DNA of 52,849 nt, taken from a virus (taxonomy: Duplodnaviria; Caudoviricetes). Position 1 is the stretch's first letter. Every line of letters starts with the position of its first letter. A program made the position numbers and the translations under genes. The stretch spans positions 1-52,849 of the IMG/VR virus record IMGVR_UViG_3300025459_000009; one strand, given 5' to 3'. Shown piece by piece: positions 3,138-28,922 of the stretch. The notes beneath the pieces are model-generated. The model did not search any database, had not been told where the DNA came from, and worked only from the letters and a program-made list of their open reading frames with translations.

Positions 3138-4202
3138 GTGTATATGCGGACAATCAACACGGGACTGCGCGGCGACCAAGTGCGGTTGCTACTTCGTAAG
3201 TTCGAACACCTGATTGTGGGGCAAAATGAGGCTATTGACAAAATTACGAACCTTCTCGAACGCTTTTTGGGCGGCATGTCTGACAACCAGCGGCCCATCG
3301 GGTCTGCCTTGTTTCTTGGGCCTACCGGGGTGGGCAAAACTGCTGTAGTCGAAGCCATGTGCGAAGGCTTGTATGGCGACCGCAACCACATGATTAAGAT
3401 TGACTGCGCGGAATTTCAATTCGGGCACGAGATTGCGAAACTCATTGGCTCGCCGCCGGGATATCTGGGCCACAAAGAGACGCCCGCCCGACTCAAGCAA
3501 GAGACGGTCACAAAACTTTACACGGAAGACGTTCCCTTCGGCGTCATCCTGTTCGACGAGATTGAGAAGGCTTCGGATGAAGTCTGGCAGTTGCTGCTGG
3601 GTGTGCTCGACCGTGGGAATCTCACTTTGGGCGATAACAGCAAGACCGACTTTACGAAGTGCATAATCATCATGACCAGCAACTGCGGGGCGCGGGAGAT
3701 TATGGAGGGTACGGTCGGCTTCAATCGACCGAACGTAGAAGATGTATCGCAGGACGAGATTTCAGATAGTTCGATGTCCGCTGCAAGAGCCAAGTTCACG
3801 CCTGAGTTCCTGAACCGGCTGGACGAGGTCTGCGTCTTCAACACGCTAGACCGTGCATCCATCGAAAAGATTATGCACATGGAGGCGTACAAGTGCAAGG
3901 CGAAGCTGATGGTCAAGGGCGGCGTGAAACTGGAAATCTCGCCTGCGGCTTTCAATGAATTGCTTGACAGGGGATTTGACAAGAAGTACAACGCCAGAGG
4001 GATTCGCAGAACGCTCGAAAAAGAAATCATGACGCCGCTTGCCCGAGCAATCAGTTCGTTCGAAGTAGCATGGGGCGACTTTCTAGTCATGGACTATCGT
4101 GACGCGAAATTCAGCTTCTACTCTATGAAGCAGAAGGTAGGCACGGATGGCGTTCTCCGCGACAACGCGCAAAGCAATTTACCAGCGGAAAGGGAATTGT
4201 GA
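3138..4202 (+). CDS. Single-domain ClpA/B-family AAA+ ATPase (NBD2-like)
   Basis: VGQNEA, FLGPTGVGKT, KLIGSPPGYLG, LFDEIEKA, IIMTSN, PEFLNRLD, NARGIRR. Confidence 0.9.
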   Translation: MYMRTINTGLRGDQVRLLLRKFEHLIVGQNEAIDKITNLLERFLGGMSDNQRPIGSALFLGPTGVGKTAVVEAMCEGLYGDRNHMIKIDCAEFQFGHEIAKLIGSPPGYLGHKETPARLKQETVTKLYTEDVPFGVILFDEIEKASDEVWQLLLGVLDRGNLTLGDNSKTDFTKCIIIMTSNCGAREIMEGTVGFNRPNVEDVSQDEISDSSMSAARAKFTPEFLNRLDEVCVFNTLDRASIEKIMHMEAYKCKAKLMVKGGVKLEISPAAFNELLDRGFDKKYNARGIRRTLEKEIMTPLARAISSFEVAWGDFLVMDYRDAKFSFYSMKQKVGTDGVLRDNAQSNLPAEREL

Positions 4203-5128: not shown

Positions 5129-5367
5129 GCGAGATTGACATCACCACGCAAGTGACCGAGAATGTAGTCGTCGCAGCGAAAGGCGGCGCGCACCCAGATT
5201 CCTATTCGCCGCGAGTCTTCGTGTACGTAAAGACCACGGACATCCACTACGAAATTCTGCGGACGGGCGAAGCCGTGCCATGGGTGACGAAGAAGCCCGA
5301 GGGATTTGAGTTCTGGATTTTTGACTGCCAGAATCTGAGTGACATCGGAGTGCATCGTGCAACTTAG
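5125..5367 (+). CDS. hypothetical protein
   Basis: ORF coupled to its neighbours. Confidence 0.55.
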   Translation: MSEIDITTQVTENVVVAAKGGAHPDSYSPRVFVYVKTTDIHYEILRTGEAVPWVTKKPEGFEFWIFDCQNLSDIGVHRAT

Positions 5368-7027
5368 ACCGTATCAGGAATCAGCCATCGACGCAGTATG
5401 CACCGCATATGATCAGAACTGGCGACAACAAATTCTGAGTATATGTACCGGTGCTGGGAAAACGGTCGTGTTTTCGTCTTTATATGAAAGATTGAAATCC
5501 CGATTGAATGGCAAAATGTTGGTCCTAGCTCATACAGAAGAGCTTATCGACCAGTCCATTGCCACGATGCGGGCTGTCAATCCAACGCTTCGCATTGACA
5601 AAGAGATGGCCGAATGCAAAGCAGATACGACTGCGGCGGATATAGTAGTCGCCAGCGTCGCAAGTTTGGGCCGAAAGAATACTCCCCGGCTTGACCGATT
5701 CAAGCGGGAAGATTTCAGTACGATTATCGTGGACGAGGCTCACCACACCCTCGCAGATTCTTATCGAAATATCCTGACGCATTTTGGCGTGCTGGAAGAT
5801 GGAACTGACAAATTGCTGTTGGGATTTACTGCTACCCCTTTTCGATCCGATGGCCGTGCCCTAGGAGAGGTTTACAAGAAAATCGTATACACGTACAGCC
5901 TGCGGCAAGCGATCACGGCGGGTTGGCTGGTCAAGGTCCGGGGGTATCTAATCTCTACCCAGACAGACATCTCTCAAGTCGGGATCACGGCGGGTGATCT
6001 AAACGCTGTGGAATTGGCCGAGGCCATTGACAATCCCGACCGCAACAAGCGGGTGATCGAGGCTTGGACGAAATGGGGTGAGGGCCGTCAAACCGTCGTA
6101 TACGCAGCTAACATAGAGCATGCCCAGCATCTAGCTACGGAGTTTACTGGGGCCGGGGTATCAACGGCGGCTATCTGGGGTAGTGATCCTGAAAGAGAGA
6201 AAAAATTACACAGTCATGCTGCGGGCGATCTGAGGGTGCTGGTGAACTGTTCCCTGCTGAATGAGGGTTGGGACAGCCCCAGCGTGTCCTGCATCGTCCA
6301 CGCCGCTCCTACGGCCTCCAGCGTTCGTTTTACGCAACGTTGCGGGCGTGGAACGAGGCTTTACCCCGGCAAGACGGACTGCTTAATCCTAGATATGGTT
6401 GATATGTCTGGAAAGCATAGCCTGTGTACCCTCCCGACGCTGATGGGGATGCCCGCAAATCTGGATTTACAGGGTTACAGATTGGTTGAAGCGGTAGAAT
6501 CAATCGAAGCGGCCCAAGAAGAAAACCCCAGCATTGACTTTGGGAAGCTAAAAAACATTGACAAGTTACAGCAGTTCATCGCAGAGGTCAATCTGTTCGA
6601 GATTCGATTCCCAGCAGAGGTCGAAGCCAACTCGGACTTCATTTGGTCGAAGGCGATTGACGGCGGCTATGTCATGCGCGTGCCTTTGCAGAAGAACGAC
6701 AGCACTGGCAACAAGCCCGGACTTGTACGGATACACCAGAATCTGCTTGACAAATGGGACATAGACGGTTATATTAACTGTAGGGCATTCCACGGTGAGC
6801 GCGGCAGCGTCGAAGAAGCCTTCGCATGTGCCGACCAGCAAATCAGAGAACGTGCGCCCGCGTCGGTATCATTAGTCAATCGCAAAGCGAGTTGGATGAC
6901 CAAGCCCGCGACGAAGGGCCAGATGACTCTACTCTCGCGCCTGTACGGAAAAGCACGAGCGTGGCCCGAACTAACGCAGGGTCAAGCGAGTCACTGGATT
7001 AACAAACGAATCGGAGGGAAGAAATAA
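5339..7027 (+). CDS. SF2 DEAH helicase (UvsW/Irc3-like); start probably GTG ~5357
   Basis: LRPYQ, TGAGKT, DEAHH, TATP, QRCGRGTR. Confidence 0.9.
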   Translation: MTSECIVQLRPYQESAIDAVCTAYDQNWRQQILSICTGAGKTVVFSSLYERLKSRLNGKMLVLAHTEELIDQSIATMRAVNPTLRIDKEMAECKADTTAADIVVASVASLGRKNTPRLDRFKREDFSTIIVDEAHHTLADSYRNILTHFGVLEDGTDKLLLGFTATPFRSDGRALGEVYKKIVYTYSLRQAITAGWLVKVRGYLISTQTDISQVGITAGDLNAVELAEAIDNPDRNKRVIEAWTKWGEGRQTVVYAANIEHAQHLATEFTGAGVSTAAIWGSDPEREKKLHSHAAGDLRVLVNCSLLNEGWDSPSVSCIVHAAPTASSVRFTQRCGRGTRLYPGKTDCLILDMVDMSGKHSLCTLPTLMGMPANLDLQGYRLVEAVESIEAAQEENPSIDFGKLKNIDKLQQFIAEVNLFEIRFPAEVEANSDFIWSKAIDGGYVMRVPLQKNDSTGNKPGLVRIHQNLLDKWDIDGYINCRAFHGERGSVEEAFACADQQIRERAPASVSLVNRKASWMTKPATKGQMTLLSRLYGKARAWPELTQGQASHWINKRIGGKK

Positions 7028-14747: not shown

Positions 14748-15320
14748 TTAGACGTAAAAGAAGACTACTGGCGGTCCTACTCCATTACTCCCGAATGTCG
14801 CGGCCGATTTAGTTCCCAGCAACTGTGCAGGCAAAACTCCCCCCGAACTAGCCACGGATGATTGGAATGCATTCAAACCATTCACTCCTGAAAAGGCATT
14901 GATGAGGCTCGCATAAGAACCGTCAAGACCATAATCCATACTTAATCCGAGACTGCTATCATTAGTAGTCCAGCCGTAATAGTAAGTTCCGGGTTGGACT
15001 TGATAGGGGGTCACTGTTGATAAAACGTTACCCGCGATTGCACCGCTCATGGCCCCAGAAGATACCAACAAGTTGCCCGATAAATCGTATAACCCTACGG
15101 AGAATAATGCACCCGCGTCTGGGGTGAGTACGTAGGCCAGCACATTGTGCCAAGAAAAAGAATACGGGATCGTAAGCATCATCGCATAAGTAGTGTTAGC
15201 TACCAACGAAGCACTCCTACCCCCTCCAAAATCATTGTACGGATACATGCAAGGAAGAACAGCATATCCCGCACCGGGGGTAACTACGTTTAGACCACTT
15301 TGGGGATTCGAGATTATCAT
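14748..15320 (-). CDS. virion-type beta protein, paralog 3
   Basis: Shares GLYxLSGN, PGxYYxxW and GVLPxxL(L)G with the two upstream genes. Confidence 0.65.
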   Translation of the reverse strand: MIISNPQSGLNVVTPGAGYAVLPCMYPYNDFGGGRSASLVANTTYAMMLTIPYSFSWHNVLAYVLTPDAGALFSVGLYDLSGNLLVSSGAMSGAIAGNVLSTVTPYQVQPGTYYYGWTTNDSSLGLSMDYGLDGSYASLINAFSGVNGLNAFQSSVASSGGVLPAQLLGTKSAATFGSNGVGPPVVFFYV

Positions 15321-15323
15321 AGG

Positions 15324-15884
15324 CTATACCATGCTCACCATTGTAGGAGGGAGAATGCTGCTAAGAGCTAAATTCACCGGGGTTAACGTTCCGAGAGTAG
15401 CAGGAAGCACTCCGAGTGTGGCGGCATTAGCCGCTGTAAAAGTTACGTTCCCCATACCTGCGAAGAGGGCGCATAGATCATGGTCTAATCCGCCTTGACC
15501 GTACAGGGTACATCCCGTCCCGCCAGAAGTCCACGCATAGTAGTAAACGCCCGGAACCAGTGTGTATGGAGTAATGGAGGTGTTTATCACTCCAAGACCT
15601 GACGAAGAGGGGATTGGGTTATGCACCAATAGATTTCCACTTAAACTGTAGAATCCTATGTCAATGTTTTGGGCTGTACCGCTTATAGATACCGCCAAAT
15701 TTTGGAGTGTAACTGCCCCCGGAATAACCAATTGAAGAACGGCTACTAGATTGTTGGCGGGCATGGAGGCGCTGGCACCACCCGAGTTTATGGTCGGGGA
15801 CATGAAAGGGAAAGAAGCTACTCCAGTCAGAGTATAATCCGGCTGGGGACTTGCGGAAATATTTGGATTATTTATATTACTCAT
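15324..15884 (-). CDS. virion-type beta protein, paralog 2
   Basis: MSNINNPN start; same shared motifs. Confidence 0.65.
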   Translation of the reverse strand: MSNINNPNISASPQPDYTLTGVASFPFMSPTINSGGASASMPANNLVAVLQLVIPGAVTLQNLAVSISGTAQNIDIGFYSLSGNLLVHNPIPSSSGLGVINTSITPYTLVPGVYYYAWTSGGTGCTLYGQGGLDHDLCALFAGMGNVTFTAANAATLGVLPATLGTLTPVNLALSSILPPTMVSMV

Positions 15885-16699
15885 GGCGTACACACACAGA
15901 CTGGCACAGAGACCGATAATCCTGTAAGAGCACCTAACGTGGAAGGTAATACCCCTGATGAGGACGCGTTGGCCGCTGAAAACATCATAGGAGTCGGAAA
16001 GTAAGGCAATGCTAGTCCGAACCCTCCAGCCAATTGTCCCCCTGAACTTACCTTAAACCCCGAGAGAGACCCCGCCGAATTTGAGACACTGCTGCTCCAA
16101 CAAAACAGATAATTCCCCGGATTGATAACTGTAGTGCTAACCGACACGCTACTGACACCCAAAGTTGTACCCGGTGTCATAACCCCCGCCACTATCTGAT
16201 TGCCTGACAAGGTATATAGACCATAACCTATAGCAGCCCCTGTTGGAGGGGCTACAGAACACGAAGACCCCGCAGGGGCCGTTTCGGCCACACCATTAGG
16301 ATTAGTCAAAGTCATTGTGGTAGTCGTATTAGCAGTACACGGAAAGATTCCATTATTTCCCGCATGGGTGAAACCCGCGCAGATGATTTTGCTGCCAACA
16401 AGGGCACTTGCCAGGGCTATCCCCCCTGATCTAGTGTATACCGTACTCCCCCCAGAGGCATTGGCTACGAGATATCCCGACCAACCCAGAATAAGAGCCG
16501 AGTCAATCAATGTGTTGAAAGTGGTTATAGAAATCTGGAAGGGGATATTCACTTGCATTCCATAGACCACGTTGGCGGTAAAATTCGCAACCGACGATGC
16601 GGATTCAAAAGCAGGGTAGATTGTAGGAAAAACGATATATCCTTGTCCCGAAGTCGATATGTTCAGATACCCACTGTTAGGATTATTTACGTTACTCAT
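15881..16699 (-). CDS. virion-type beta protein, paralog 1, with inserted module
   Basis: MSNVNNPN start; shared motifs; ~75 aa insertion. Confidence 0.65.
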   Translation of the reverse strand: MSNVNNPNSGYLNISTSGQGYIVFPTIYPAFESASSVANFTANVVYGMQVNIPFQISITTFNTLIDSALILGWSGYLVANASGGSTVYTRSGGIALASALVGSKIICAGFTHAGNNGIFPCTANTTTTMTLTNPNGVAETAPAGSSCSVAPPTGAAIGYGLYTLSGNQIVAGVMTPGTTLGVSSVSVSTTVINPGNYLFCWSSSVSNSAGSLSGFKVSSGGQLAGGFGLALPYFPTPMMFSAANASSSGVLPSTLGALTGLSVSVPVCVCTP

Positions 16700-16707
16700 T
16701 CATCCGC

Positions 16708-17127
16708 CTAACTTTGCACTTGATACAACGCTCCGCTTATCTGTACCGCGTTACTAGAGTTGATTACAAAGCCAGCGCCCGCAGTCGTAGTGAACCAAGG
16801 TTCGCTCGAAAAATCAAGGGTAATAGAACCATTGGCTTGTAGGGGCATAGCTCCAGTGAATACAACAGGAGTACCCGCGTTGTCCTTGAAAGTAATGTTA
16901 GTCGCACCCGCTACTACCAAGAACAAACGATACACTCTCACGGATTTTGTACCTGACCCAGCAACAAGAACCGTAGACCCACTAGCTGAGATGTTTATCT
17001 CAACAGGAGTTGTGGCCGCTATCGCAGGAGCTACCGTTGTAGGGGCAGGGTTACCTGAAGTGAATAATATATTCGTGCCGTCGCTGATGCACGTTTTTGG
17101 AAATTGTACCTGTGAGTTGCTAATCAT
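16708..17127 (-). CDS. small structural beta-sandwich protein
   Basis: GGAG RBS; T/S/G/A-rich; late operon. Confidence 0.6.
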   Translation of the reverse strand: MISNSQVQFPKTCISDGTNILFTSGNPAPTTVAPAIAATTPVEINISASGSTVLVAGSGTKSVRVYRLFLVVAGATNITFKDNAGTPVVFTGAMPLQANGSITLDFSSEPWFTTTAGAGFVINSSNAVQISGALYQVQS

Positions 17128-17134
17128 AATGCTC

Positions 17135-17236
17135 CTAAACTACCCGCAATTGCTTATCGCCGCTTTCACTGATGAGAGTGCGTGTCGAGTGCGAGAAGAC
17201 CATGCAGCCATCGCTCGCGCAACGTGGATGACCTAT
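17135..17236 (-). pseudogene. orphan second copy of the Tlde1-like gene 3' end
   Basis: Frame reads IGHPRCASDGCMVFSHSTRTLISESGDKQLRVV*, aligning with ASEGCIIMSRKTRNQVITSGDNRLQVV*. Confidence 0.85.
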
Positions 17237-17762
17237 AATCAATGTATCTCGTACCCTTATGATTGTTACATCCGCCTACTGCCCCACGTTTATGGCCGTG
17301 ACATAGCGGTTGAATATTTGATATGTCGTTGGACCCACCAAGTGCGATAGGTAAAACATGGTCGGGCACGAGCGTCAATCCAGCGGCAATTAATTCTGGT
17401 TCGCTTCGACCGCAGCCAAGACAAACGTTGCCGAGAGCCTTAAATTGCTCCGTCGTAAAAGAACCGCCTGCTCCCGTCTTTCTAGCACGGCGACGATGGT
17501 GTATAGCTGCGACCTTTAGCGGATTATCTTTTGCCCATCGAGCACATATTTCACGGGCCTTTTCAGGGTTATCCTGACGCCATTGGCGGGACATCTCGCT
17601 ACACTTCTTGAGATTATTCTTTCGCCACTTGGTATAATACGCCCGCTGCTCTGTTCTGTGACCCTCGAACCATGTACGAGAATACTCAGGATGAGACTCT
17701 CGCCATCTACGACTCCGCAATATCTTTCGAAGAATCGGTGTCATGACATTGATATGGAGCAT
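17166..17762 (-). CDS. HNH homing endonuclease
   Basis: R/K/W-rich N-terminus; HRRRARK..GSFT..CLGC..PDHVLPIALGGSNDISNIQPLC..CN..KG. Confidence 0.85.
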   Translation of the reverse strand: MLHINVMTPILRKILRSRRWRESHPEYSRTWFEGHRTEQRAYYTKWRKNNLKKCSEMSRQWRQDNPEKAREICARWAKDNPLKVAAIHHRRRARKTGAGGSFTTEQFKALGNVCLGCGRSEPELIAAGLTLVPDHVLPIALGGSNDISNIQPLCHGHKRGAVGGCNNHKGTRYIDYRSSTLRERWLHGLLALDTHSHQ

Positions 17763-17769
17763 GTTATTC

Positions 17770-18144
17770 CTAAACTACCTGAAGCCGATTATCCCCACTG
17801 GTAATTACTTGGTTTCGAGTTTTCCTTGACATGATTATACACCCTTCTGAAGCTTTTCCGCTAGGGGTGGTATCGCCATGCAGATAAAAGTCTCCACGTC
17901 CACGCATGTCGTTATTCGCATCCGGCGTCAACGGAATTGCGAGCGGGCCGAGATGGGTTCCTTCGACCGCTGCGCCAAACGTGTAGTATCCGACAGGTAA
18001 CGGGCCGATGTCCTCTGTGTACTGGTACGCTTTGTTGCAAATTCCTTCGGGGTTCTTGCCTAAGTTCCCCCCGGCATATCCCTTCTCAATCTGCGTGCTG
18101 CTAGGGTCGGTGAGCCAACCCGTGCTACTGTCGAATGTCCACAT
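17770..18144 (-). CDS. Tlde1/DUF2778 L,D-transpeptidase-fold peptidoglycan enzyme
   Basis: GYAG, GPLPVGYY, RGDFYLHGD, ASEGCI (His/Cys catalytic motif). Confidence 0.85.
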   Translation of the reverse strand: MWTFDSSTGWLTDPSSTQIEKGYAGGNLGKNPEGICNKAYQYTEDIGPLPVGYYTFGAAVEGTHLGPLAIPLTPDANNDMRGRGDFYLHGDTTPSGKASEGCIIMSRKTRNQVITSGDNRLQVV

Positions 18145-18153
18145 TTCAGTTCC

Positions 18154-19239
18154 TCATGGTAAGCCGCCTACAAACACGGCTTTTAAATGGTAATTGAAAG
18201 CCAATGCCATGCCTACGGTGTTATCCATGAGCATGACGGGTGAGGTAGAAGCGCTTCCCAAAGTGCTTTGCCTTACGTTACCTATCACGCCTGTCATCGT
18301 TTCGCTGTTGACGTTGCCAAAACCAAAAACTACGGTATCCGTAGTCTCGTCTGGTGTGACAGTCAGGCTTGCAGTACCACTCGACCCTGAACCAGTATTG
18401 CCTGCCAGAGCTATATCAACAGAAGTTGCTCCGCTGTATTCTGTGACAGCCATTGATGCTTGCCGAGAAGTTGTCCACGTAGCCTTGTAGCTAGTGACTC
18501 CAGCAGGAACGCTGGCTTGACTGAAGGCTTTAAGCGTGCCTATGCTTGGTCCAGCGGTCAGAGTATTGCCGAGATTATCCTTCACAGTAACTGTACCCGC
18601 CGATGCCCCTGTATTGAATAGAATGACTGCAGCATTCCCAGTGGTCGGAGTGTATGTTACGGTCAACGTAGTTGCCCCAGCGCTCTCCGAAGCTGTTGCT
18701 CCACCTACATACAGTGGGGATGCGACAGTTGAACGTAGACCAATTGCTAAGGCATCCCAAGCAGTCGAGGGCATCGTTGCAGAACACTCCGTTGTCGTTG
18801 TGTTCGCCGGAGGATTGCTTGTATAACCAATGCTCACACCGATGGCAACTCCTGCCAGTGCGTTCACCACACAGCTACCTGTTAAGCAGGAATTTATTGA
18901 GTTATCACTATTGCTGGGGGCAACTGTTCCGTCCTGCAACAGTAGTCCAGCCTTCAATGTGACGGGGACAAGACAATCTGCACAGGTGAAGTACACTGTT
19001 ACTGGACCAAGGGTGCTGGTTGGGGTAGCTATGCTACCGCCACTCGCAGGTTGCACCGTGCGTAGGTAGAGCGTGACCAGATAAAGACCGCTCACCTCCG
19101 GGGGAGGGATAAACACAGTTTCTGGTAATGCCGCAGTGATGCTGTAGCCCGACTGAGACAAAGTTAAAGCGGGTGCGACGGTGCCCGTGTCTGCGCTATA
19201 TGTAGCGATGGCTCCGTCTATGTATAATGGAAGTGCCAT
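18154..19239 (-). CDS. structural or fibre-associated protein with nested domains
   Basis: T/S/A-rich beta composition; resembles the C-terminal domain of 19313-22021. Confidence 0.6.
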   Translation of the reverse strand: MALPLYIDGAIATYSADTGTVAPALTLSQSGYSITAALPETVFIPPPEVSGLYLVTLYLRTVQPASGGSIATPTSTLGPVTVYFTCADCLVPVTLKAGLLLQDGTVAPSNSDNSINSCLTGSCVVNALAGVAIGVSIGYTSNPPANTTTTECSATMPSTAWDALAIGLRSTVASPLYVGGATASESAGATTLTVTYTPTTGNAAVILFNTGASAGTVTVKDNLGNTLTAGPSIGTLKAFSQASVPAGVTSYKATWTTSRQASMAVTEYSGATSVDIALAGNTGSGSSGTASLTVTPDETTDTVVFGFGNVNSETMTGVIGNVRQSTLGSASTSPVMLMDNTVGMALAFNYHLKAVFVGGLP

Positions 19240-19312
19240 GATGTTCTCCTAAGAACACCGTTTACGATTCTTGCGGTTTTATTCTTTCCGTATTCGGAGT
19301 TGTTTTCCTTTC

Positions 19313-27659: not shown

Positions 27660-28922
27660 CTACTTTACGATTTCACGTTTGGTCGCAAGCGTATCGAACG
27701 CGGCGTCGTTATACAACACCGTGGCGATAAGCCCTTGGTCTTTATTCCAGATGAATGCTTCCGCTTGTCGTTGGTTCTCGACATAGCCGTTCTCAGCATG
27801 CCAGTCATCCGGCGGACATAGCGCAGGCAGAATTCGTACCTTCACGCCATGGTCTTCCGTGACCTTGTCGCAGTGACGATGTCCCGTGTGAATTTCACGG
27901 AACTGCGTCTCTGCCCACATCTTCGGTTCTTCGCTCGCCATGAGCATCGGGTAATCTGACCCTTTGTCTCCGTGCGTAAAACCTAGCGCAACCTTTCCAA
28001 ACTGAAAATACTTTCGATAGCGCGGGTCGTTCTCAACAGTGACATCCGGGTCGCTGCGATACCAGCACTCTAACGAATCGCCCATGTGCCAAGCGGCAAG
28101 TTGGTCGTGATTGCCAGGGACGACCATGACGGTCACCGGGGCAATCTTCTTCAACTTCTCAATCGCTTCGCACAGCGTAAAGCGAACGGTGCGATAAGTC
28201 TTGTGGTAACGAATATCGGTCGTAACCACTGTCCCCTTGGTCGTGGTGTTCTCCGCGTTGTCACTGTTCAACAGGTCATTCCCAATGACGAACAGGATGC
28301 GGTCAAACTTGTACCCAGACGACCGTTCGATGAGCGTGTTGAGTGCCCGCATGAACATCGCTTGAGCAATCTGCACGTCATAAGGCTCGTGCCCGGTTTC
28401 TTTAGGCCATGCCAGCTTGCCGAAGTGATGGTCGGAGATATTGATTTCGAGCAAATTGCCCGAGACACCCTCTGGTCGCTCGATTTTCAGAATCTTGCGT
28501 TTAAGACCCTTCGCGGCCAAATCTTTCAGGTCAGCGATCTCGTCAAGAATCTCGATGATGTGTTTACGTTTGCGGAAGAACGCACTGATCTGGAATTCAC
28601 CCTCGTCCAAATCCTTCGCACGGAAACGGTAAAGTTCCCATACGTGCGTGTCAACCTTCAATTGCTTGATGACCGCGTCGGGACTGCACACGGTTGTCTT
28701 TGGGATAAAAACATTCCAGTCATCGCCGTCGATCTTGCTCGTCATGCCCTCTTTGTTGACGCCAGCGGCATCAGCAAAATCTTGGAATGTGGCAAACTCT
28801 TTGCCCCATGCCGCTTCGGTATATTCGCCGTTCTCACGATAGAAGTTCCGGGTGACCTGTCCCCCATTCTTCTCTGCAACTGCCGTCAGATCGGCCAGTA
28901 GGGTTTCCTTGGAAACGTTCAT
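27660..28922 (-). CDS. calcineurin-like metallophosphoesterase with N-terminal helical (HTH-like) domain
   Basis: SDHHFG, GNDLLN, GNHD, THGD, TGHRH. Confidence 0.85.
   Translation of the reverse strand: MNVSKETLLADLTAVAEKNGGQVTRNFYRENGEYTEAAWGKEFATFQDFADAAGVNKEGMTSKIDGDDWNVFIPKTTVCSPDAVIKQLKVDTHVWELYRFRAKDLDEGEFQISAFFRKRKHIIEILDEIADLKDLAAKGLKRKILKIERPEGVSGNLLEINISDHHFGKLAWPKETGHEPYDVQIAQAMFMRALNTLIERSSGYKFDRILFVIGNDLLNSDNAENTTTKGTVVTTDIRYHKTYRTVRFTLCEAIEKLKKIAPVTVMVVPGNHDQLAAWHMGDSLECWYRSDPDVTVENDPRYRKYFQFGKVALGFTHGDKGSDYPMLMASEEPKMWAETQFREIHTGHRHCDKVTEDHGVKVRILPALCPPDDWHAENGYVENQRQAEAFIWNKDQGLIATVLYNDAAFDTLATKREIVK

Follow-up and report, generated by a model that had tools for sequence, protein, structure and literature searches.

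A probable homing cassette in an uncultured phage brings a replacement gene end and an HNH endonuclease into a Tlde1-like gene

An HNH endonuclease open reading frame (ORF) interrupts a Tlde1-like gene in record IMGVR_UViG_3300025459_000009, a metagenome-assembled sequence of an uncultured virus (52,849 bases, estimated to be 55% complete), which is analysed here at its full length and referred to as the window. Relatives of this gene typically end in one of three alternative C-terminal tails, designated classes A, B, and C. The live gene of the window is a hybrid of a class-B-lineage N-terminus and a class-A tail; the endonuclease ORF comes next, and the native class-B gene end lies stranded behind it. 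Public metagenomes contain this locus both with and without an insert at positions 17237-17872, and the two alleles coexist in the same samples. These observations are probably explained by homing, driven by the HNH endonuclease, of a cassette consisting of the class-A gene end and the HNH gene into class-B alleles. The features used throughout the text are the following.

17770-18144, minus strand: live Tlde1/YkuD-fold gene, 124 amino acids (aa), an ORF ending in HGDTTPSGKASEGCIIMSRKTRNQVITSGDNRLQVV and a stop
17770-17871, minus strand: class-A replacement 3' end, codons 92-124 plus TAG stop, recognised by tail comparison with relatives P0004 and P0003
17237-17872, minus strand: inserted segment, 636 nucleotides (nt) relative to the natural empty-site allele, delimited by the contig joint 17236 to 17873
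17873-17920, minus strand: probable co-converted left flank, codons ~76-91, with limits that are inferred
17166-17762, minus strand: HNH endonuclease ORF, 198 aa, with Pfam and PHROG matches
17762-17232, minus strand: HNH-homologous codons 1-177 of that ORF
17231-17166, minus strand: its codons 178-198 and stop, which are the old tail read out of frame
17135-17236, minus strand: stranded native class-B gene end, 33 codons plus stop, translating to IGHPRCASDGCMVFSHSTRTLISESGDKQLRVV and a stop
16708-17127, minus strand: native downstream gene, an ORF of 139 aa starting 7 nt after the stranded end
17768-17779, with a second copy at 17133-17144, minus strand: the 12-mer GGTAGTTTAGGA, in which the codons for V, V, and stop overlap a ribosome-binding site

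Read along the minus strand, the foreign gene end (17871-17770) is followed by the endonuclease ORF (17762-17166) and the native C-terminus (17236-17135). The spacer between the live-gene stop and the HNH ORF is 7 nt, and the 636-nt insert comprises the class-A gene end, this spacer, and those codons of the nuclease ORF that are homologous to the HNH family. The stranded tail overlaps the last 22 codons of the HNH ORF in a different frame and has no in-frame upstream partner. An earlier interpretation made from the letters alone (the sequence-only reading) had proposed a mobile unit composed of a new 3' end and the HNH gene; its peptides, coordinates, and shared 12-mer all proved correct when the sequence was read again.

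The hybrid nature of the live gene follows from comparison with its natural relatives. A search over 5.8 billion proteins returned 223 relatives, the best 120 of which were analysed. Tail classes were counted on 118 clusters, the window's own protein and its 94% twin being left out.

Class A (the live type), tail HGDTTPSG[KN]ASEGC: 65 clusters among the 118 listed
Class B (the stranded type), tail H[GA]DTIGHPRCASEGC: 23 clusters among the 118 listed
Class C, tail HGDHIGAPGTASDGC: 24 clusters among the 118 listed
Other tails: 6 clusters among the 118 listed

The loop that separates the predicted catalytic residue His89 from the S-x-G-C102 motif is where the classes diverge. According to the N-termini, the closest relatives of the window protein are class B, as are all of the top nine among the 118 listed, and its residues 1-45 have 93% identity to class-B P0003 and P0005. 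As for residues 92-124, all 33 are identical to those of class-A P0004, versus 14/33 for P0003. The first 45 residues of P0004 have 47% identity to the window protein. Identity to P0003 falls from 82/91 over residues 1-91 to 14/33 over residues 92-124 (Fisher p 1e-7), while identity to P0004 rises from 31/58 over residues 1-58 to 65/66 over residues 59-124 (Fisher p 3.5e-10). DNA identity to the class-B locus L019 is 77-97% up to approximately nt 260 of the gene and 37-60% thereafter. The switch from class-B-like to class-A sequence is located near residue 84-92. The class-B peptide HADTIGHPRCASEGC is identical in 10/10 distinct class-B DNA sequences, synonymous changes notwithstanding, and in the window its coding sequence is divided by the 636 nt. 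HNH-less relatives had been expected to end in the IGHP..ASxGC version, and this is what was found, both for the closest N-termini, which are class B, and for the empty-site contigs described below. HNH-free genes of the TTPSG type do exist but are more distant, and the stranded tail is located on its native downstream DNA.

Regarding the downstream gene, its family (N-terminus ..NQVQFP..; L024, L025, L027, and window 16708-17127) follows class-A and class-B enzyme genes alike, so that the loop classes behave as alleles at one syntenic locus. Homologues of the 139-aa gene lie directly after the enzyme gene in L026/L027 and L024/L025.

The window stretch is present in 24 public runs, which are peat, wetland, and lake metagenomes. 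For the comparison of alleles, contigs of 4 of these 24 runs (X12, X13, X14, and X21) were placed on positions 16000-19300; parts that they do not cover are uninformative. The empty site is represented by one contig each in X13 (867 nt) and X14 (361 nt), both lake/freshwater metagenomes. These contigs join 17236 to 17873 with 4 letters between, and on the coding strand the joint reads H-G-D-T-I-G-H-P-R-C, i.e., an intact class-B gene before the same downstream gene. Since the 4 letters differ from the occupied allele, the empty form is not a simple deletion product. The X13 contig covers 16452-17236, where 23 of 785 letters differ from the window, and ends at 17950; a contig shared with the window starts at 17921. 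The tails at the empty sites differ from the stranded tail at no fewer than 7 positions, which changes four residues. A contig of X21 stops matching at 17236 as well, and its loose end translates to RGEFYVHGDA, exactly as in P0003. Occupied-form pieces are also contained in X13 and X14, with X14 contigs spanning both junctions (17142-17296 and 17712-17917), and an X12 contig at 16240-17310 has the occupied form with zero differences.

The same combination of gene end and nuclease recurs in other gene backgrounds. The best HNH relative, P0121 (183 aa, 177/183 identical, or 97%), is encoded on a single JGI contig of 3449 bases. Class-A P0004 is likewise encoded on a single JGI contig of 3449 bases, and we infer that the two are neighbours on one contig. 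Residues 1-75 of P0004 are identical to those of the HNH-free class-B locus L046 (75/75), followed by 11/16 for residues 76-91. As in the window, the end of P0121 (..IDYRSSTLRE) corresponds to old-tail codons read out of frame, but its stop comes 15 codons earlier. A further relative, P0002 (one ENA contig, 50,911 bases), is identical to the window protein from residue 22 onwards (103/103) and matches it at 14/21 of residues 1-21, its N-terminus resembling that of class-B P0006. Judging from these alignments, two gene backgrounds at least, and perhaps a third, contain the cassette, and each has a class-B counterpart; the pair P0004 and P0121 in particular supports the proposed mobile unit. The position of the breakpoint, which had been placed between the catalytic His and Cys, is supported in part. 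Insertion at the HGDT/IGHP codons stands; the foreign stretch in the second background, however, begins approximately 16 codons upstream and not exactly at HGD, as would be expected from co-conversion during homing.

According to Pfam, the HNH ORF matches PF01844 with 22.1 bits (cut-off 21.4), and its score for PF14279 (26.7 bits) is slightly under the cut-off of 27.5; several PHROG HNH families match as well. When 30 family members are aligned, 18 columns prove invariant, and the window protein keeps all of them, including D134, H135, N149, C114, C117, C154, and C165. The last conserved residues of the family are I-D-Y-R (Y176 and R177), beyond which relatives have short unrelated ends. The claim that the HNH gene has no stop of its own holds: after R177 the protein consists of 21 residues obtained by reading the old tail out of frame, up to and including the stop. 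The R177 codon and the first codons of the old tail share five bases. HNH relatives other than P0121 have at most 55% identity. In viral contigs, 7 of the 10 large ORFs scanned upstream of such relatives have a PHROG match, in each case to a conserved gene (portal/head-tail adaptor, protease, terminase, helicase, or exonuclease V), and this spread beside diverse conserved genes is the pattern shown by free-standing homing endonuclease genes.

The N-terminal half of the HNH family (residues ~20-90, window 17500-17700) carries a variable number of short W-x-x-x-NPEK-like repeats, from about two to five, which accounts for the family length range of 169-222 aa. These repeats may be modular DNA-recognition units.

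The stranded tail is identical to the tail of the intact class-B P0003 at 32/33 positions and has no internal stop, the single difference being E to D before GC, which departs from 10/10 class-B loci. A tblastn search with the stranded tail reports the tails of class-B loci (up to 76% identity, E down to 2e-15 in a small database), and its identity to the live tail is 48% over 27 aa; on these comparisons, the resemblance to class-B gene ends is not due to chance. Among short called ORFs, a search aimed at the P0121 contig gave no candidates matching the stranded tail. The two tail ends form a 32-nt direct repeat, 75% identical with a spacing of 635 nt. Both finish in the 12-mer, and an ATG is located 7 nt past the stop in each case. 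The 12-mer is thus present at both tails, as had been claimed, but is not specific to this locus, since HNH-free relatives of classes B and C (such as L028, L029, L030, L032, L033, L037, and L052) also have the QVV-TAG-GAG end and, 7 nt past its stop, an ATG. Its sequence is best read as the conserved gene end of the family (Q-V-V-stop), with TAG overlapping a ribosome-binding site of the GGAG type. Consequently, it is not a target-site duplication or an insertion scar; the start codon of the nuclease sits in the slot of the native downstream gene, and the stranded tail still gives a ribosome-binding site to the real downstream gene. No GC-content anomaly marking the insert was found.

As for the product of the live gene, it is predicted to be an L,D-peptidase-fold enzyme of the Tlde1/YkuD type, i.e., a cell-wall enzyme. 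The protein matches the Pfam Tlde1_dom family (PF10908) with 34.2 bits (cut-off 30.1), whereas a profile search of PDB sequences reports nothing at E<=0.01. Its AlphaFold2 model has a predicted local distance difference test (pLDDT) value of 91.8, and confidence dips solely at residues 91-100 (pLDDT 68), which is the loop between His89 and S-x-G-C102. The best Foldseek matches of the model are the Tlde1a structures 7uo8, 7uo3, and 7uma (query TM-score, TMq, 0.65-0.67), with B. subtilis YkuD next. Tlde1a is described in the available part of PMC9638812 as a type VI secretion L,D-carboxypeptidase/transpeptidase effector of Salmonella Typhimurium (PDB 7uma, 7uo3, and 7uo8), and the catalytic motif quoted there for Tlde1 is H ... 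(S/T)-H-G-C. The phage protein has the same Pfam domain and fold, and residues corresponding by motif to the catalytic His and to S-x-G-C can be assigned (H89, S99, G101, and C102); His89 is encoded at 17880-17878 and Cys102 at 17841-17839. These four residues are invariant across 40 relatives, their positions being matched by motif and not by residue-level structural alignment. In contrast to Tlde1a, the phage protein has 124 aa, which is about 50 residues shorter, and contains E in place of the second His (H129); in the family, the residue preceding G in S-x-G-C is E or D, not H. Moreover, the phage gene has no secretion or immunity context and is located among tail-fibre-like genes.

Under the homing explanation, the HNH endonuclease would cut or nick class-B alleles near the codons for HGDT/IGHPRC. 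The cassette would then be copied by repair from an occupied genome, with the conserved gene core as the left homology arm and the stranded class-B tail plus the downstream gene as the right one. The imported class-A tail would complete the recipient gene in frame, so that no intron or intein is needed, and the occupied allele would be immune because its target sequence is split. The old tail would persist as an untranslated remnant, from which the nuclease ORF takes its last 21 codons and its stop and the following gene its ribosome-binding site. At the founding event, one-sided repair probably joined the 3' end of the nuclease illegitimately to a cut class-B gene. By its sequence features, the HNH gene would belong to the free-standing homing endonuclease genes: the nuclease family, the presence/absence polymorphism, the disrupted conserved target, and the signs of co-conversion are all found at this locus.

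Several results weigh against this explanation. The HNH could be a passenger, and the window nuclease has lost the native C-terminal residues of the family after R177. P0004 and P0121 are taken to be adjacent from the equal length and common source of their contigs. The empty form is represented by one short contig per run at a depth of ~4, and its right flank diverges from the window by ~3%, so that the empty-site genomes are near relatives and not isogenic. None of the 95 other Tlde1 loci (15 viral and 80 metagenomic, of which 61 extend 700 nt or more downstream) has an HNH gene or a second tail. A screen for duplicated termini around HNH-family genes, which the sequence-only reading had suggested, failed to find a further case among the 67 evaluable of 80 viral loci (maximal z 2.6, versus 11.4 for the window), although this screen is crude, considering the last 45 aa of the same-strand upstream ORF only. 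The cassette is therefore rare in what could be sampled.

The loss of the native nuclease C-terminus would also fit ordinary recombination in which a class-A phage carrying the HNH gene met a class-B phage and a single illegitimate junction was formed; general recombination among phages would then have carried the arrangement into further backgrounds, the HNH cutting no target. Genes of the tail module are mosaic anyway; the match of X13, X14, and X21 contigs to the window breaks off exactly at the gene start (18144), and there is no upstream flanking gene common to the window and the 95 other loci. Such a passive origin, however, would not readily account for an insertion point inside the stretch that encodes an invariant peptide between catalytic residues, nor for the same cassette with the same right-hand reading in a second N-terminal background of 47% identity. 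Occupied and empty forms also coexist in two runs, and every invariant family residue is kept in the nuclease. We consider it unlikely.

The sequence-only reading had further suggested that the stranded tail could be restored by recombination as an alternative allele, serving as a reserve for a switchable active-site loop. The nearly intact state of this tail (32/33 versus P0003, no internal stop) is in line with that role, but is equally expected of a young remnant that encodes the nuclease end and the ribosome-binding site of the next gene. Neither a recombinase nor inverted repeats were found around the stranded tail, the two tails, with just 75% identity over 32 nt at the end of each, offer little homology for switching, and the E to D change before GC departs from all 10 class-B loci. 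Empty-site contigs do not have the occupied letters at the joint and so are not simple deletion products. The idea is thus left unsupported, and we regard it as highly improbable. Hardly any probability is assigned to an assembly chimera or to splicing by an intron or intein into one product. The window is indeed a metagenome-assembled virus record, yet 13 contigs encode the exact HNH protein and 9 the live gene, and contigs of independent runs (X12 and X14) extend across both junctions. As for splicing, Rfam reports no match at E<=1 in 16500-18500, and the live ORF runs uninterrupted to a stop of its own and has a predicted Tlde1a fold at pLDDT 91.8, in agreement with the original suggestion that the gene is restored without an intron or intein. 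HNH-driven homing is thus the explanation that we retain as probable.

The closest known layout comes from fungal mitochondria. According to the available part of Beaudet et al. 2013 (PMC3630166), mobile ORFs (mORFs) make gene hybrids with a carboxy-terminal duplication in Glomus atp6, atp9, cox2, and nad3, and an atp6 hybrid of Allomyces macrogynus is cited in the same portion. In these hybrids, as far as the accessible text of PMC3630166 and PMC6279837 describes them, a foreign carboxy-terminus comes with the endonuclease ORF, and its native counterpart stays downstream. The window resembles these portrayed hybrids in having a foreign C-terminal piece in frame with the native core, an endonuclease ORF next, and the native C-terminus downstream, as well as in the downstream native end being nearer to that of relatives than the inserted end (here 32/33 versus 14/33 to P0003). 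In contrast to the hybrids as portrayed there, the host is a phage, the nuclease is of the HNH and not the LAGLIDADG or GIY-YIG type, and the target is the active-site loop of a cell-wall enzyme. The nuclease ORF here also ends out of frame in the old tail, and empty and occupied alleles occur in the same samples. The phage cassette works like an mORF, although it is placed outside the mORF set by its HNH nuclease and its viral record.

Among phages, intronless homing is described for T4-type phages with the free-standing endonucleases SegB, SegF, SegG, and MobE (PMC2330249 and PMC2790892, in the parts available). To the extent that those parts describe it, the present locus is similar in that a free-standing nuclease gene adjoins or interrupts a conserved one, with co-conversion of flanks and mosaic genes, and the cleavage of the nuclease-less allele is a logic common with the proposal made here. 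T4 homing nuclease genes lie between genes and are not known from inside a reading frame. The T4 cases replace the recipient flanks and are not known to leave a stranded duplicate gene end. Genes that are split by a homing endonuclease gene and yet active are attributed to Friedrich et al. 2007 in the accessible text of PMC8351571. They share with the window a nuclease gene inside a conserved phage gene with no intron or intein. In that example, reportedly nrdA/mobE of Aeromonas phage Aeh1, both halves are said to be used as separate polypeptides. In contrast, the old half here is replaced and unused.

A full-text literature search covering the main text of papers found no phage description of this layout and returned papers on fungal mitochondrial, chloroplast, and general phage homing instead. 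In the parts available, PMC10448857 and PMC8351571 also describe no case of a layout that replaces the gene end. The layout is known from fungal mitochondria and hardly described in phages, and the mechanism proposed is the same as in the mORF case. The novelty relative to mORFs lies in the host type, the nuclease family, the target, and the unusually direct natural evidence of mobility.

Regarding the wider window, the neighbours of the Tlde1-like gene are tail-fibre-like. Downstream, a 272-aa gene in 14748-16699 (minus strand) shows weak paralogy (31-40% identity) to the next two genes (189 and 190 aa); this array represents a tandem Ser/Thr/Gly/Ala-rich family, probably tail-fibre-like, and similar arrays are found in L026 and L027. 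Upstream, the agreement of the X13, X14, and X21 contigs with the window ends precisely where the Tlde1-like gene starts (start codon, 18144), and different sequence follows. More loose ends are located at 18560 and 18609-18618, within the 361-aa upstream gene, and X12 has a depth spike on a 44-nt piece. It seems that the upstream tail-fibre-like gene is exchanged as a module between variants.

PHROG matches were obtained for only 3 of 10 large ORFs tested in the window, namely a DNA repair exonuclease, a DNA helicase, and an ATP-dependent protease-like protein (matched regions listed as 27660-28922, 5339-7027, and 3138-4202), and the large ORFs of 616-1421 aa match nothing; the phage is distant from those described. 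A blastn search of 16000-19300 against known phage records gave no match. According to tblastn with the live protein, relatives in known phages are all below 60% identity and belong to Erwinia and Dickeya jumbo phages. Neither the live protein nor the exact 30-nt junction between the HNH gene and the old tail was found in viral contigs, a set from which the window's own record may be excluded. Among prokaryote genomes, the Tlde1-like gene has its nearest relatives (L179-L192, 37-48% identity) mostly in Acidobacteriota/Terriglobales bins from soil and peat, with some in Enterobacterales; as a weak hint from sequence similarity, they may point to the host group and to prophage copies.

The locus, with empty and occupied alleles side by side, indicates that neither an intron nor an intein is required for a phage homing endonuclease to enter a reading frame in its middle, since it carries a replacement gene end along. 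For annotation, this means that stranded gene ends and out-of-frame nuclease tails are liable to be misread as noise or frameshifts, and for phylogeny, that tail-swapped genes are hybrids of two histories. The two alleles also represent a concrete substrate pair for studying the specificity of a large and little-characterised HNH family with variable N-terminal W-x-x-NPEK repeats. With respect to phage evolution, the cassette is a selfish element carrying a functionally relevant allele of an enzyme loop. A more speculative and rather doubtful extension is that it acts as a gene-end drive, pushing the immune class-A His-to-Cys loop through class-B populations, with loop classes A, B, and C maintained or generated by nuclease attack and target escape. 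If this is true, a phage cell-wall enzyme would have its active-site loop, and possibly also its range of substrates, shaped by a selfish element.

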